From Escherichia coli (GTDB taxonomy: Bacteria > Pseudomonadota > Gammaproteobacteria > Enterobacterales > Enterobacteriaceae), in assembly GCF_003334335.1 (NCBI RefSeq), contig NZ_QOWQ01000005.1: 64,000 nucleotides of DNA, one strand, 5' to 3'. This document shows, one piece after another, positions 48,395-62,352 of the stretch (the stretch's first letter is position 1; each line of letters opens with the position of its first letter). The translations under genes were made by a program, and so were the position numbers. Below the pieces are notes generated by a model that was not told where the DNA came from, did no database searches, and saw nothing but the letters and a program-made list of their open reading frames with translations.

Positions 48395-48550
48395 ATTGGT
48401 GAGCAGTGCGGCCTTTTCCCCTCACCCCGGCCCTCTCCCCGGAGGGGCGAGGGAGAAAAAAAGAGTGCGGTGTCGTTTCAGAGTGAGGGAGTACATACAG
48501 CGCCGAACGGTCCCCTCTCCCTGAGGGAGAGGGTTAGGGTGAGGGGGCGC
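48395..48550. repeat. GC-rich palindromic intergenic repeats (ccctctcc / ggagaggg and ccctcaccc / gggtgaggg units)
   Basis: Several inverted copies of the same short GC-rich units; the same family recurs at 55160-55378. Confidence 0.55.
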
Positions 48551-55379: not shown

Positions 55380-57293
55380 TTACTTACGACCTGCCAGCAG
55401 TTCCAGCACTTCATCCACGCTGGTGGTGTGTGCCAGACGCTCGATGACGGACTCATCATCCAGTGCATTGGTCAGGCTGGTGATAACCTGAATGTGCTCG
55501 TTGTTACGGGCAGCAATACCAATCACCAGACGGGCAATGTCATCTTCTTCTTCACCGAAGCGCACGCCTTCCGGGTACTGGCAGAACACGACGCCCGTTT
55601 TCAGTACGCGATCTTTCGCTTCAACCGTACCGTGTGGCACCGCGATAGACTCACCCAGATAAGTCGGGGTCAGTTTTTCACGATCCAGCATCGCCTGAAC
55701 GTATTCCGGCTCAACGTAACCGCCTTTCACCAGCTGCTCGCCAGCAAAACGAATCGCTTCTTCTTTGGTTGCCGCTTTGCGACCGAGGAAGATGTTCTCC
55801 GCGCCTAGCTTGAACAGGTTAGCACTGGAATCGTCAAAGCTGTCTTTCAGGCTGTCTTTTACTTTCTCTTCGTTTGCCGTGTGGCGTTGGGCAGCAACCA
55901 GACGTTCGGTCAGGCTGGTGTACAGGCCGCTGTCGAGGAAGTTGGTCAGCGAAATATGCTGTGCCTGCGGAACCTGGCGCATAGCGCGTTCGGTCAGGTC
56001 ACGGTGAGTGATGACGAGGTCCACATCTGGCGGCAGGTTGTTGATCGCGCTGTTAGTAACAGAAATCTGCGACAGACCTGCATCCTGAATTTTCTTACGC
56101 AGAACGCCTGCGCCCATCGCACTGGAACCCATACCGGCGTCACAGGCAACGATGATTTTACGTACGTGGCTCAGGTCGTTAGTCACATCGCCAGCAGACA
56201 GCGGAGATGCGCCTTTAGACTCAGCTTTCATGTCCTGCATACGACGAGTTGCTGCTTCAATATCATCTTCTTCTTTCACTTTGCTGGTTTTCAGCAAAAT
56301 AGCAGAGACAACGAAGGAGACAGCCATCGCCGCACACACACCCGCGATGTTAGCGAAGTAAGCACCTTTTGGTGTCATCGCCAGTACAGCAAGGATAGAA
56401 CCCGGAGATGCCGGAGAAACCAGACCACCGCCCAGGATAGTCAGCGTGAACACGCCAGTCATACCGCCGAGGATGACTGCGAGGATCAGACGCGGATTCA
56501 TCAGCACATACGGGAAGTAGATTTCGTGGATACCCCCCAGGAAGTGGATGATTGCCGCACCGCCCGCAGACTGTTTAGCGCTACCACGACCAAAGAACAT
56601 GTACGCCAGCAGCACGCCCATACCTGGACCTGGGTTAGCTTCAATCAGGAAGAAGATTGATTTACCCAGTTCATGGGACTGCTGAATACCCAGCGGCGAG
56701 AAGATACCGTGGTTAATGGCGTTGTTGAGGAACAGGATTTTCGCCGGTTCAACAAAGATAGACGCCAGCGGCAGCATGTCATGGACAACCATGAAGTTAA
56801 CGCCCGCAGCCAGCATTTTGGACAGGGCTTCAACAATCGGGCCAATGCCGAGGAATGCCAGAATAGCGAGGATCATCCCGATGATGCCTGCGGAGAAGTT
56901 ATTCACCAGCATCTCAAAACCGGATTTGATCTTACCGTCTACCCAGCGGTCGAAGTGCTTAATGCACCAGCCGCCCAGCGGACCTGCAATCATAGAACCG
57001 AGGAACATCGGCATGTCTGCGCCGACGATAACGCCCATGGTGGTGATGGCACCGACTACGCCGCCACGTTCGCCGCCTACCAGCTTACCACCGGTATAAC
57101 CGATCAGCAGCGGCAGGAGATAAGTGATCATCGGCCCGACCAGCTTCGCCAGCGTCTCGTTCGGTAACCACCCTGTTGGAATAAATAACGCGGTGATGAT
57201 ACCCCACGCGATAAACGCGCCGATATTTGGCATCACCATGTTGCTGAGGAAACGACCAAAGCTTTGCACTTTGATCTTAATATCGGATGACAT
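55380..57293 (-). CDS. mtlA: PTS mannitol-specific EIICBA component
   Basis: 637-aa [34 protein letters not shown]. Confidence 0.93.
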
Positions 57294-57436
57294 AAAAACA
57301 CCCCTTCTTATGTTTGCTGTCGCGCAGGCTGGAAGCCCGAGGTTTTTTGTTAATGTGGCGGCAGAGGTAGCCGGACCTTGTAGATACTGCGAAATCTGGC
57401 ACTGAATCGGTTAACTGTCCAGTCGACGGCCTTTTG

Positions 57437-57452
57437 TGTGATATCAATCACA
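57437..57452. promoter_or_regulatory. CRP site TGTGA-tatcaa-TCACA (mtlA promoter region)
   Basis: Perfect symmetric CRP core motif. Confidence 0.65.
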
Positions 57453-57553
57453 TAAATATAGGGGGTAGAGAGGTAATTGACGTGACGTTCATCACAAAAC
57501 GCTTGTGTAAAAAAGCAACAAGGCGGCGATTTTCGCTAAAAATGGCATTTAAA

Positions 57554-57569
57554 TGTGAGTAGTGTCACA
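57554..57569. promoter_or_regulatory. CRP site TGTGA-gtagtg-TCACA (mtlA promoter region)
   Basis: Perfect symmetric CRP core motif. Confidence 0.65.
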
Positions 57570-57597
57570 TTTTTGTTTTGATGGTTTGTTGAATCTT

Positions 57598-57613
57598 TGT
57601 GATCTGAATCACA
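57598..57613. promoter_or_regulatory. CRP site TGTGA-tctgaa-TCACA (mtlA promoter region)
   Basis: Perfect symmetric CRP core motif. Confidence 0.65.
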
Positions 57614-57829
57614 AGATATTTTCTTACGGCGTTCACCTGATGTGATCTACAGCATGTTATGCCTTCGTCATACAATCGTTATGTAACTAAGCAACTCATC
57701 ACCTCTAAAAATTATTCTTTGGTGTTATGGCGAGAATCGCGAACCCGGATTATTGTCAAAATATCAGCCTGACTCCCTTCTGGCTGCCAGCCCAAAAACA
57801 ACACTGATAAACGTGAATCCGAGGCAGAT

Positions 57830-58192
57830 ATGTTTCTAAACTATTTCGCGTTGGGAGTGCTGATCTTCGTCTTTCTGGTGATTTTTTATGGAATCATCGC
57901 GATACATGACATCCCTTATCTGATTGCCAAAAAGCGCAACCATCCCCATGCCGACGCTATTCATACGGCGGGCTGGGTGAGCCTGTTTACTCTGCATGTT
58001 ATCTGGCCGTTTCTGTGGATCTGGGCGACGCTCTATCAACCGGAGCGTGGCTGGGGTATGCAGTCACATGTTGCGTCGCAGGAGAAAGCGACTGACCCGG
58101 AAATCGCCGCACTTTCTGACCGAATTTCCCGGCTGGAGCATCAACTCGCCGCCGAGAAAAAGACTGACTATTCCACGTTCCCGGAGATCTAA
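57830..58192 (+). CDS. yibI: Small inner-membrane protein (DUF3302)
   Basis: 120-aa ORF with two predicted TM helices; stop is 2 nt before the yibH start. Confidence 0.75.
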
Positions 58193-58194
58193 TT

Positions 58195-59331
58195 ATGGAT
58201 CTATTGATTGTTTTAACTTACGTGGCGCTGGCGTGGGCGGTCTTTAAAATCTTCCGCATTCCGGTAAATCAGTGGACGCTGGCGACGGCGGCGCTGGGAG
58301 GCGTGTTTCTGGTGAGTGGTTTGATTTTGTTGATGAACTACAACCACCCTTACACTTTTACCGCGCAAAAGGCAGTGATAGCGATCCCTATCACGCCACA
58401 GGTGACGGGAATTGTTACTGAAGTCACTGACAAGAATAATCAGCTTATTCAAAAGGGCGAGGTGCTTTTTAAGCTCGACCCGGTTCGTTACCAGGCGCGA
58501 GTTGACAGACTTCAGGCTGACCTGATGACGGCGACGCATAATATAAAGACGCTGCGTGCGCAGCTCACTGAAGCGCAGGCCAACACCACCCAGGTTTCAG
58601 CGGAGCGCGACCGTCTGTTTAAAAATTATCAACGTTACTTGAAAGGCAGCCAGGCGGCGGTGAATCCGTTCTCGGAACGTGACATCGACGATGCGCGGCA
58701 AAATTTCCTCGCGCAGGATGCGCTGGTGAAAGGCTCGGTGGCGGAGCAGGCGCAGATCCAGAGCCAGCTCGACAGTATGGTTAACGGCGAGCAATCGCAG
58801 ATTGTGAGCTTAAGAGCGCAACTTACTGAAGCAAAATATAACCTTGAGCAGACTGTCATTCGCGCGCCGAGCAATGGCTACGTTACTCAGGTACTGATCC
58901 GCCCAGGTACATACGCAGCTGCCTTGCCGCTGCGTCCGGTGATGGTCTTCATCCCCGAGCAAAAACGGCAAATTGTCGCCCAATTTCGGCAAAACTCGCT
59001 GTTACGTCTGAAACCCGGCGATGATGCGGAAGTGGTGTTTAACGCGCTACCTGGGCAGGTGTTTCACGGCAAACTGACTAGTATTTTACCTGTCGTGCCA
59101 GGCGGTTCTTATCAGGCGCAGGGGGTATTGCAATCATTAACGGTCGTGCCCGGCACGGACGGTGTGCTGGGAACCATTGAACTGGACCCTAACGATGATA
59201 TCGATGCCTTACCCGACGGCATCTACGCCCAGGTGGCGGTTTACTCCGACCATTTCAGCCATGTTTCGGTGATGCGGAAAGTGCTGCTAAGAATGACCAG
59301 CTGGATGCATTATCTTTATTTGGATCATTGA
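58195..59331 (+). CDS. yibH: HlyD-family periplasmic adaptor protein
   Basis: 378-aa ORF with N-terminal TM anchor, coiled-coil and beta-barrel regions typical of membrane-fusion proteins. Confidence 0.8.
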
Positions 59332-59790
59332 GGGGGAGGGGGGAGATTATGGAACTTTGCTCCTTGTAAGGACTAATTATTTTTGCATATTACTTCATTA
59401 GCTGCGATGATTTTTCTTTAATATTCATTATGTTAATAAGTTCTGGATGAGTGTGCTCTCATTGGATTTTTTATCCGTCTTGTTCTGCCGCAGGATGAGA
59501 CTATACATCGTCGAGATCGCAATGATGATATGAGTTGTTCCTCCTGCGACGGCTCTAATCAAAAAAGAGCAGGAGTGCTTTTCCATCTATTGCGATGATG
59601 GCTTTATTATCTGAAGGATGACAGTCACATTTAAAAAATATTTAATCTATAGATCACAATGTAGGGTCATGGAATATATGTATACAACTATTTTCTTCTT
59701 CACTTTTAATTATCGTATTCATTATAAAACTAAGTTAAAAAAACTCCTGGAGAGTGAGTTATTAATATATTTTTAAATAAAATTAAGTTA

Positions 59791-60228
59791 TCATTCATCG
59801 ATGCACTTTATAGAATCATCAATGGCCATAATAGTACTATTAACTCTCAATTTTATATTTTTATCATCACTACAAATATTAACTGAATTTATATCAATGA
59901 TTTTTTTATTCTTATCTTTTATTTTATTTACTGTTTCAATGCAATCAGCGGCAAGTTGGAGTGGATTTAGATTTTTCAGATATGGTCTTATGATCTTTCC
60001 CTTACTTAATAAATAGCATGTATAGGATTCGGAAAGTCCAGCATCTATTTTGTACCTCATTATATTAGATAAGGATGTGAGAAATTCCTTGTTATCATTC
60101 GCAGCCATATATGCCAGTCCGAGTTCAGCCTCTGCGGCCTTACAGGCAAAATAGCTTAGTGAACACGCTTTTCGTCCCTCTTTAGTACTGGCTGATATTA
60201 GTGCCCATAATATTGCTTTGTCTGCCAA
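59791..60228 (-). CDS. Hypothetical protein; candidate immunity protein of the degenerate third Rhs module
   Basis: 145-aa AT-rich ORF immediately downstream (minus strand) of a degraded Rhs C-terminal remnant; role inferred from position only. Confidence 0.4.
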   Translation of the reverse strand: MADKAILWALISASTKEGRKACSLSYFACKAAEAELGLAYMAANDNKEFLTSLSNIMRYKIDAGLSESYTCYLLSKGKIIRPYLKNLNPLQLAADCIETVNKIKDKNKKIIDINSVNICSDDKNIKLRVNSTIMAIDDSIKCIDE

Positions 60229-60316
60229 ATCTAACTCTCTCTGAAATTGTCTTGCAGTAACTGCACTCGCAGAAATAGAGAAAAAAATACAATTGTTAAT
60301 AACCTTGCCATATTTT

Positions 60317-60900
60317 TTAGTCCGTAACTGTTAATGTGCTATCTGGCTCTGAAAATATTAACTCATTTAATTTTTGCATGTCATTAGATAAACCAGTTAT
60401 ACAACCCTCGGAACAGAATCGAGGTCCTAAAGACGGACCAAAAGCGTTTAAACAACTATGTATTGAAAATCCATTGCGATTATAAGTTCCTGTATTAACT
60501 GACGGTACTAATCGTATGCCGTCAGGTTTTCTATTGCTTGCTCCCGGGTCATTAACATTCCAACTCCATAGGCCTTGAGGTATTGGCCATCTATTTATAA
60601 ATGTGTACAACGGGGATTATTTTTACATTGCATATTATTACCAGAAGCGACTGGAATACTAAGCACATCATAAAAATTATCATCACATGGTATATCTGAA
60701 ACACACGAAAGCATACCTAAAGTTATGCTGTATAAACAGGTGGCTAATCCCAAGGGGATCGATTCCAGAAATCGGGTTCAACGGATACTGATAAAAATTC
60801 CACCTACCTTCCAGCCCAATCGGAGCCTGAGTGTTATACCGCCCCTGCTGCGGTTAATGTTACCGATAATAGTTATAGTACAGCCCTGATTCATCATCAT
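60317..60900 (-). pseudogene. Degenerate orphan Rhs C-terminal (toxin-tip) remnant
   Basis: About 140 bp (60764-60900) of degraded similarity to the Rhs core 3' repeat, followed by AT-rich sequence with only a 97-aa ORF (60317..60610) and no continuous frame. Confidence 0.45.
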
Positions 60901-60934
60901 ACTACTGCTGCGGCAGTCTGATGAACTATTGCTT

Positions 60935-61396
60935 TTACGGATTCTCCTTATTCTTCCTTCTATCCATTCGCTTTAGCTTTTTGAGCTCTTGAAGTTTGCT
61001 CTTTGCATCAATATTACCGTTATTTACAGCGAATTCCATCCAATAAATAGCTCTATTCAAATTATAATATTCTGATAATGTTGGATTTGTATCTGATAAA
61101 AAGACCCCATAATTAAACTGCGCTGTAACATTCCCCTGAGATGCTGATCTTTCCAAGAATCGCAATTGTTTGTAAATGTTATTTTTAGTAAAGCAGTAAT
61201 ATTGATATAGTCGAAATGATGCCTCTGAATCACCATGTTGTGATTTATACTTCAGTTTCATCAACTTTTCTTCACTTAAATCATAGGTCATTGCTGTAGA
61301 CCCCATCATACTTTCGTTTTGTTTTATTTTCACATCAGCACCATGCAATTGACAAATAAAAGAGAAATAAAAAAATAGTAACAAGCATGCTTTCAT
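60935..61396 (-). CDS. yibG: Sel1-repeat protein; candidate immunity for the orphan Rhs toxin tip
   Basis: 153-aa ORF with signal-like N-terminus and Sel1/TPR-like repeats; immediately follows the orphan Rhs tip. Confidence 0.6.
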   Translation of the reverse strand: MKACLLLFFYFSFICQLHGADVKIKQNESMMGSTAMTYDLSEEKLMKLKYKSQHGDSEASFRLYQYYCFTKNNIYKQLRFLERSASQGNVTAQFNYGVFLSDTNPTLSEYYNLNRAIYWMEFAVNNGNIDAKSKLQELKKLKRMDRRKNKENP

Positions 61397-61407
61397 ACAT
61401 CTACAAC

Positions 61408-62352
61408 CTATCTTATATCACTGGGTTTTTCTGGCGTACCTTGCATATTAGAAATGGGGTGCCCAGATGGCCCATATGTTATCCAATTACCAAGGTCTTT
61501 TGTTGTTATAGCCATTAGATCCTTATTTGAATTAAGGTTCGTTGGTGCTGTTAGCACTGTATCCATTTTTAACTTACCATTAGTTCCTCGCCCCCACCAC
61601 GTCCATAGCGTGTCAGGTCCTATTACATTTGTATGTAACTCTTTAGCTAATTGGCTAGCAAATGAATTTTGTCCTTTACCTGTATTACAAGAAAATAACC
61701 AAACTGTCATCCCATCTTTATAATTCCCATCAAATTTAATTAGATATGCTAGATCTTTAGCTGTCATGATACTGCGCGTTGCGGATTCAATAGATGTGGG
61801 GGAACCATGCCCCCCGATTGTGAAAACGCCTGGGATATTAATCTCATCAGCTACAGAATGGATAAGATCACTTTCGGGGTATAAATTTATATCAACCAAA
61901 CCTTGCGGATCTACATTTATGACCGGATTCAACGGATACTGATAAAAATTCCATCCCCCCTTCAGTCCAATCGGATCCTGAGTGATATACCGCCCCAGCA
62001 GCGGGTCATAATAGCGGTGGCGGTTGTAATACAGGCCGGACTCCTCATCATACTGCTGACCCGGCAGGCGAATGAGCTGCTGCAGATGATGCGGGTTCTC
62101 ATCACTCAGCAGGTTGCCCCATTCATCATATTCTGCGCACCACGCTGTTGCCCCTTCCGTGCTGATGAGCGCCAGCGGCAGGCCGCGATGGTCGCAGTGG
62201 TACAGGTGGATTTTTCGCGCCGGCGTGTACACCGGGTCCATCTGGTTTTGCATCTGCTCCACGGTCAGGCCGCACGATGCCAGCCAGCGGCGGCTTTCCT
62301 CACTCACCCGGTCAGCCAGGATTTCACTTTCCAGCCGGTCGAGCATCTGCAC
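61408..62352 (-). CDS. yibJ: Orphan Rhs C-terminal fragment (core 3' end plus distinct toxin domain)
   Basis: 314-aa ORF; N-terminal part matches the Rhs core end ([26 protein letters not shown]...[16 protein letters not shown]) and is followed by a divergent AT-rich C-terminal domain. Confidence 0.65.
61924..62250. repeat. Rhs core 3'-end repeat, copy in the orphan module
   Basis: About 95 percent identical over about 330 bp to 63675..64000. Confidence 0.75.

Follow-up and report, generated by a model that had tools for sequence, protein, structure and literature searches.

What occupies the 459 nt between the last core gene of an Escherichia coli chromosome and the Rhs array next to it, and does any of it have a function? 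The question is raised by positions 59332-59790 of a 64,000-nt stretch of DNA, referred to here as the window. The gap lies exactly between the stop codons of two convergent genes, yibH (TGA, 59329-59331) and yibV (59791-59793). The window belongs to E. coli, its segment 59250-59850 being 100% identical to strain B REL606; relative to K-12 MG1655, the differences within 59250-60400 are a single substitution and one T7/T8 run. In K-12 the gap corresponds to 3769784-3770242 of U00096.3. The gene order is mtlA (minus strand), yibI (plus strand) and yibH (plus strand), followed by the distal end of RhsA on the minus strand. From yibH inward, and still on the minus strand, the RhsA element comprises yibU, yibV, yibW, yibS, yibG, yibJ, yibA and rhsA; in the K-12 and REL606 annotations the rhsA core gene, the core extensions and the orphan tip/immunity modules are contiguous with the gap. 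The limits of the gap are as follows:

58195-59331, plus strand: yibH, HlyD-family membrane protein, the last core gene (ORF list; RefSeq annotation of K-12 and REL606)
59332-59333, no strand: junction between the core and the RhsA accessory DNA (comparison of empty and occupied sites)
59791-60311, minus strand: yibV, Imm57-family immunity gene, frameshifted here, the right limit of the gap (PGAP annotation of the identical REL606 sequence)

In our reading the gap is very probably the decayed distal tail of the RhsA accessory element, and it is already known and ordinary: an annotated pseudogene plus a catalogued promoter island. About two thirds of E. coli genomes carry RhsA as an insert separating yibF from yibH, and the tail at its distal end can be divided into four parts. 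Counted from yibH, these are a 14-nt G-rich junction sequence, about 45 nt that are possibly a scrap of H-repeat leader, about 235 nt of a frameshifted internal fragment of an H-repeat transposase gene (yibU) oriented as rhsA, and about 165 nt with 21% GC forming the 3' flank of the oldest displaced Tlde1-Imm57 module.

The rhs locus between yibF and yibH has been described by Jackson et al. 2009 (PMC2935791), and comparison of genomes with and without RhsA fixes its edge to a single base. The end of yibH was matched in 5,333 of 5,426 complete E. coli genomes; in this collection 3,729 genomes carry the tract-bearing allele of the RhsA tail and 1,523 have an empty site. With a 601-nt query, 3,685 genomes match over most of the length, and the remaining matches end at query base 83, which is position 59332. 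At the empty site, for example in strain SF-468 (L003 6083-6155), yibF lies 70 nt after yibH, and the RhsA-less genomes share the sequence through ...CATTGAG, after which come 32 unique nt, without counterpart in occupied genomes, and the yibF leader. Because the match of the empty-site genomes ends there, the junction is placed at 59332/59333, one base past the yibH stop, and therefore the entire gap, with the G-rich tract as its first bases, is RhsA accessory DNA. The alignment of empty and occupied sites puts the second junction before GCCATACTG, 39 nt upstream of the yibF start. RhsA thus shows presence or absence among strains, a fixed site and a base-precise junction. The original prediction had seen in the gap the boundary between core chromosome and Rhs array; this boundary is real, but it is a single point, and the gap is wholly accessory rather than neutral ground. 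As candidate terminal inverted repeats of RhsA, the G-tract end and the yibF end were compared by eye and rejected, the resemblance being merely purine-rich. In RhsA-less genomes yibH and yibF are co-oriented, while in K-12 and B they are separated by the oppositely transcribed RhsA; being co-oriented and only 70 nt apart, they could be co-transcribed where RhsA is absent.

The gap has a GC content of 33.1%, compared with 48.8% for the window, and falls in the lowest 5% of 459-nt windows. This composition is uneven, with 36.5% GC at 59332-59427, 41.7% at 59428-59626 and 20.7% at 59627-59790. Hence the description of about 450 bp of very AT-rich sequence holds for the overall low GC, but only the last 164 nt are very AT-rich. 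Similarly, the interval had been called non-coding, with no convincing ORF; it contains no intact gene, but the annotated pseudogene yibU had been missed. About half of the gap is in fact the remnant of an ISAs1/H-repeat transposase gene:

about 59393-59628, minus strand: internal fragment of an ISAs1-family (H-repeat) transposase gene (K-12 annotation, NCBIfam, tblastn, DNA alignment)

In K-12 this remnant is annotated as pseudogene yibU (b4652), which corresponds to 59428-59626 on the minus strand. Its homology was observed here by three routes. A conceptual translation spliced across a frameshift matched NCBIfam model NF033564 (ISAs1) at positions 68-138 of 314, with E = 1.3e-9 and 37.7 bits, a score that lies below the 70-bit full-length cut-off, as expected since the query is a fragment. 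A tblastn search with the K-12 H-repeat protein YhhI aligned residues 96-123 (64% identity) and 124-159 (58%) in two frames, with a combined E of 1e-14. Furthermore, the reverse complement of about 59393-59628 is about 75% identical to yhhI at the DNA level, with three single-base indels. An exhaustive search of 1.84 billion representative proteins returned 202 relatives at E <= 1e-3; among the matches listed, the intact relatives are about 40-60% identical, and the best-scoring ones, at about 60%, belong to the same H-repeat family. As the remnant reaches only about 60% protein identity and 75% DNA identity to the K-12 H-repeats, it is an old, diverged copy.

The remnant is damaged by the three 1-nt indels and by an in-frame stop codon. 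Its conceptual translation had no match in Pfam, a 27-mer taken from it had 0 matches in 100,044 species-representative genomes, and a word-indexed protein search returned only the same short E. coli ORFs. No matching terminal inverted repeats were found around it, the repeat search giving only AT-rich, chance-like pairs, and neither end of a 1.3-kb H-repeat element could be recognised. Of the marks of an insertion sequence, it shows similarity to ISAs1 transposases, with no full-length ORF carrying a DDE catalytic domain and no terminal inverted repeats with a target-site duplication. Because it covers only profile positions 68-138 of 314 and bears three indels and an in-frame stop, we consider it a pseudogene remnant and not an IS.

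Between the G-tract and this remnant lies a stretch for which a similar origin was considered:

59346-59392, minus strand: possible second H-repeat fragment, leader plus Shine-Dalgarno hairpin-like, low confidence (alignment to the yhhI leader)

Minus-strand positions 59356-59372 spell TCCTTAC-AAGGAG-CAAA, in the same order as in the leader that precedes the transposase ATG of yhhI. This pattern, chosen post hoc, has a single occurrence in the window and none in 100 shuffles. On the plus strand, 59342-59392 reads GGAG-ATT-ATGGAACTT, its last 9 nt being identical to those with which the H-repeat transposase ORF opens. To judge from these short alignments, the 47 nt beside the G-tract may, with low confidence, come from another piece of an H-repeat that underwent a tiny inversion, unless the resemblance is coincidental.

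On its other side the gap is bordered by the most distal toxin/immunity module, which is itself decayed. A T-run in yibV (59901-59907) has seven T in the window and in REL606 and eight in K-12, changing the reading frame: YibV has 111 aa in K-12, while the window has a 145-codon ORF that covers residues 29-173 of the intact AF40 protein (173 aa) with 90% identity. Next to it, at 60317-60610 on the minus strand, a 97-codon ORF (pseudogene yibW in K-12) represents the C-terminal portion of a toxin with a Tlde1 domain; an intact gene for 135 aa in strain 1190 (L009 2507-2914) matches it at 87% identity. Among the modules of the array, Tlde1/Imm57 is therefore the oldest one, now displaced. Published data on this side of the gap concern yibV and the yibG-yibV spacer (window about 59894-60935): yibV is reported to be induced 7.9-fold by AZT in a LexA-dependent manner without having a LexA box (PMC11228462), and a genomic-SELEX peak of RcdA lies between yibG and yibV (PMC3535384).

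The most AT-rich part of the gap separates the remnant from this module:

59627-59790, no strand: spacer with 20.7% GC, from the remnant to the Imm57 stop, the core of the published yibV/yibH promoter island (composition; PMC3661553)
59709-59738, minus strand: sigma-70 promoter-like TTAACT-N18-GATAAT, pointing towards yibU and yibH (consensus scan; hexamers as in PMC3946193)

These 164 nt have no recognisable homology, and neither an Rfam match, a terminator-like site nor a stable fold was found in them. An imperfect 18-nt inverted repeat (59629-59646 and 59761-59778, 78% complementary) surrounds most of the segment and is probably due to chance in such AT-rich DNA. Panyukov and Ozoline 2013 (PMC3661553) list, among 78 promoter islands, island 3767592_418 at yibV/yibH (418 bp, U00096.2), marked as lying within a predicted genomic island. 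Shifted by +1,977, an offset checked on the waaC/waaL island, it occupies 3769569-3769986 of U00096.3 and about 59588-60005 of the window. The same authors describe promoter islands as AT-rich, horizontally acquired, covered by H-NS and transcriptionally silent, with RNA polymerase bound in the absence of productive transcription. In their Table 1 the island is marked 'A', for H-NS-bound in all ChIP data sets compared, an entry that reaches us second-hand, from one table summarising the ChIP data of other groups. For RNA polymerase, Shimada et al. (PMC3946193, Table 3) report an in vitro SELEX site of the RpoD holoenzyme in the yibV-yibU spacer, given as TTAACT-15-GATAAT. The suggestion that the gap could be an H-NS-silenced region is thus supported by the published ChIP compilation (PMC3661553); the spacer is not flagged in the in vitro H-NS genomic SELEX (PMC3946193).

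Our two-hexamer scan of 59100-60400, an algorithm that differs from that used by the authors of PMC3661553, found 7 promoter-like sites compared with 5.7 +/- 1.9 in shuffles, and the high-affinity H-NS motif TCGATAAATT, allowing at most 2 mismatches, has 87 matches in the window for 79 expected, with one weak match in the gap. The AT-rich part of the tail would resemble other horizontally acquired AT-rich DNA, to which, according to the literature, RNA polymerase binds in vitro and H-NS in vivo. Such binding by both would make it transcriptionally silent, the occupancy by H-NS being probably a passive result of base composition.

Sequence divergence bears on whether any of this is maintained by selection. 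Between the window and AF40, we observed 27 substitutions and 2 indels over the 459 nt of the gap, or 5.9%. In yibH, 16 of 1,137 nt differ, and as both strains have the protein WP_000364939.1 all 16 differences are synonymous, which gives an estimate of about 5-6% per synonymous site. The similarity of the two rates indicates that the tail drifts at about the neutral rate, and it appears, from the sequence comparison, to have been inherited together with yibH. The substitutions are unevenly spread, with 10 per 100 nt beside yibH and 1 per 100 nt at 59532-59631, in the 5' part of the remnant; this unevenness is not significant after allowing for five windows. Moreover, independent IS insertions in or beside the gap are found in natural isolates, at about 59359, 59544, 59625 and 59803:

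yibH 3' end: ISKpn26 (L004)
about 59359: IS1B (L010), followed by remnants of an SMR transporter and aadA that replace the Rhs tail
inside the yibU remnant: IS5 (L014-L017)
about 59625: IS1A (L021)
about 59803: IS1A (L005), with yibV to yibG lost

The alternative that survives best, although we hold it to be unlikely, is that the tail is a selected silencer or insulator. Its AT-rich DNA would nucleate H-NS filaments that, possibly with Rho, silence the orphan toxin/immunity fragments and stop read-through of yibIH from colliding with antisense transcription out of the island where the convergent genes meet. The published H-NS signal in all ChIP sets compared and the RNA polymerase bound without productive transcription (PMC3661553) are consistent with such a role, and so are the promoter pointing antisense into yibH and the absence of an intrinsic terminator-like site in the gap or after either of the convergent genes. 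The tail is also retained under differing upstream cassettes, in K-12/B, AF40 and strain 1190; however, linkage to yibH explains this retention equally well. The drift at about the synonymous rate argues against selection, and means that only base composition could be selected. In addition, natural isolates carry IS1 and IS5 insertions in the region or deletions of it, and it is absent from the 1,523 genomes with an empty site.

A more specific version, in which the tail is a selected boundary element, strikes us as very improbable. Here the promoter at 59738-59709 would fire antisense towards yibH, and transcription of the G-tract would yield a C-rich RNA (CUCCCCCCUCCCCC) that, jointly with H-NS, would bring about Rho-dependent termination just before yibH. 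If this were true, yibIH would be protected by an insulator that the RhsA island itself supplies. In a weaker variant, the Shine-Dalgarno-like tract and the mini-ORF behind it would load ribosomes at the 3' end of yibH mRNA. The idea of a selected insulator in general is speculation that draws only on base composition and context. We keep to the reading of the gap as a decayed RhsA tail, in which nothing encodes a product and the sequence drifts at about the neutral rate.

Whether the gap could hide a small protein or a small RNA was judged from the frames around the G-tract, from the short ORFs of the gap and from RNA structure. The frame nearest to yibH is:

59349-59369, plus strand: six-codon mini-ORF (MELCSL*), preceded by the Shine-Dalgarno-like GGAGG/GGAG of the tract (sequence)

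The mini-ORF is most likely not a gene. Its stop is CAA in AF40 (L006), where a 33-codon ORF, MELCSLQGLIIFAYYFIGCDDFSLISIMLRSSG, extends over window positions 59349-59450, and it remains TAA in the window, K-12 and strain 1190. Along this plus-strand frame, 6 of the 10 differences between the window and AF40 are synonymous, a weak hint of past coding constraint. The ORF was also considered as the N-terminal domain of a second transposase (MELCSL..DDFSLIFIMLISSG compared with MELKKL..LSDILLLTICAVISG), an idea rejected because its 3' half overlaps the opposite-strand homology to residues 160-178. Two 52-codon ORFs (59428-59586, minus strand, and 59618-59776, plus strand) complete the set; across three allele classes, an indel or stop interrupts each of these two and also the mini-ORF in one allele or another. 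Regarding RNA, a search of 57000-62000 against Rfam at E <= 1 gave no match, and folding compared with shuffles gave z = -0.10 for the yibH 3' flank and +2.02 for the Imm57 3' flank.

A hidden small gene is likewise very improbable, whether it be the 33-codon ORF that AF40 keeps open or an RNA started at the 59738-59709 promoter. In its favour, a Shine-Dalgarno-like sequence is followed by an ATG, the differences in the frame lean towards synonymous ones, RNA polymerase binds at the promoter in vitro (PMC3946193), and short ORFs of the gap sit in protein databases as 'hypothetical protein'. Yet the ORF ends at a premature TAA in the window, K-12 and strain 1190, its 3' half overlaps transposase-derived DNA of the opposite strand, Rfam returned no family, folding was no better than in shuffles, and the overall divergence of the gap is neutral. 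Furthermore, the current K-12 record lists small proteins from ribosome profiling elsewhere (yibX, yibY), and here annotates only pseudogene yibU.

The remaining feature of the gap is the G-rich tract itself, considered together with a control run in the spacer:

59332-59345, plus strand: G-rich tract GGGGGAGGGGGGAG (G5-A-G6), with which the accessory DNA begins (sequence)
59737-59743, plus strand: A7 homopolymer, the truly polymorphic run of the gap, with A7 in 2,493 genomes and A6 in 546 (six-allele alignment)

The string gagggggaggggggag reported after the yibH stop is present, but at 59330-59345 and not 59332-59347, an offset of 2 nt, and its initial GA belongs to the yibH TGA. In the 64-kb window, the only 16-mers with at least 12 G or at least 12 C are in the G-tract and in a boxC-like element at 48418-48440. 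The latter belongs to a GC-rich palindromic element, CCCCTCACCCCGGCCCTCTCCCCGGAGGGGCGAGGG (48418-48452), which we take to be boxC-like. As a pattern the tract is statistically unremarkable and within chance: allowing at most 2 mismatches there was 1 match for 0.32 expected, and at least 1 match occurred in 28 of 100 shuffles. A G-quadruplex is ruled out, four G-runs being needed and only two present. The allele types seen are G5AG6, G5AG5, G6CG5 (AF40) and GTAGGGAAGGGGG (strain 1190), and a 72-nt probe gave the following counts among the 3,729 tract-bearing genomes:

G5AG6, identical to the window over 72 nt: 3,322 genomes
G5AG5: 21 genomes
G5AG7: 4 genomes
G4AG6: 1 genome
older diverged allele (G6CG5 in AF40; the strain 1190 form): about 312 genomes

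One-G length variants thus number 26 in total among about 3,400 genomes with the window-type allele. Some of them may be sequencing errors, because the most similar protein match (P0001) is a 1.2-kb error-prone assembly of the same locus in which the G-tract and two T6 runs are shortened. The A7 run, by comparison, varies about 20 times more often; its A6 allele includes O157:H7, and although the run overlaps the first two -35 bases of the minus-strand promoter-like site, the hexamer and the spacing are unchanged. The G runs had been proposed to be slippage-prone, a claim that these counts do not support, with 3,322 identical tracts, 26 that differ by one G and a far more variable A7 run. Contingency loci usually have runs of at least 7 bases, and the runs of 5 and 6 bases in the tract are short for phase variation. 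Since the tract lies past a stop codon and between convergent genes, there is no evident target that a longer or shorter tract could switch; neither frequent length polymorphism nor a position inside a frame or a promoter spacer was found. The weakest alternative, a contingency tract whose slippage switches a neighbouring gene or the mini-ORF, can point to one-base variants across unrelated serotypes and to a GGAGG 9 nt before an ATG, but it is extremely improbable with so little variation, part of it perhaps sequencing error, with the tract 3' of the yibH stop and with an ORF behind it that has 6 codons in most alleles. Phase variation is already largely refuted and without basis here: rather than a switch, the G-tract is a sequence incidental to the junction.

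Read as the decayed tail of RhsA, the gap matters little beyond bookkeeping. The junction between RhsA and the core is now fixed to a single base, and for annotation our results argue against calling genes ('hypothetical proteins') from the short ORFs of the gap. For Rhs biology, they suggest that RhsA was formerly closed by an H-repeat, as RhsB and RhsC are, and that the tail, which would be left over from this H-repeat, stayed in place while the toxin cassettes upstream were exchanged.

The tail can be compared with four known systems. With contingency tracts it shares G runs and rare variants of +/-1 base, but its runs are short (5 and 6), interrupted, outside any ORF or promoter spacer, and almost invariant in 3,400 genomes. 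With promoter islands it has in common that the 3' two fifths of the gap together with the 3' half of yibV are a listed island; it differs in that this island covers only about 59588-59790 of the gap and extends into the Imm57 gene, leaving the G-tract and most of the transposase remnant outside. Compared with the displaced C-terminal tips and orphan modules of rhs loci (PMC2935791), the gap flanks the outermost module, a Tlde1 fragment with Imm57, on its 3' side, although it contains no rhs core, toxin or immunity sequence itself. The fourth comparison is with the H-repeat genes and fragments that close RhsB (yhhI, beside yhhJ) and RhsC (ybfQ, ybfL, ybfD) distally and point the same way as the rhs gene. 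These differ from the remnant, of which only about 235 nt are left, corresponding to about residues 96-178 of a 378-aa protein, with three frameshifts, a stop and no terminal repeats found. Like them, the remnant belongs to family NF033564, is oriented as its rhs gene and forms the last component of the Rhs element, adjoining the core flanking gene. As H-repeats close both RhsB and RhsC, the RhsA tail fits the known architecture.
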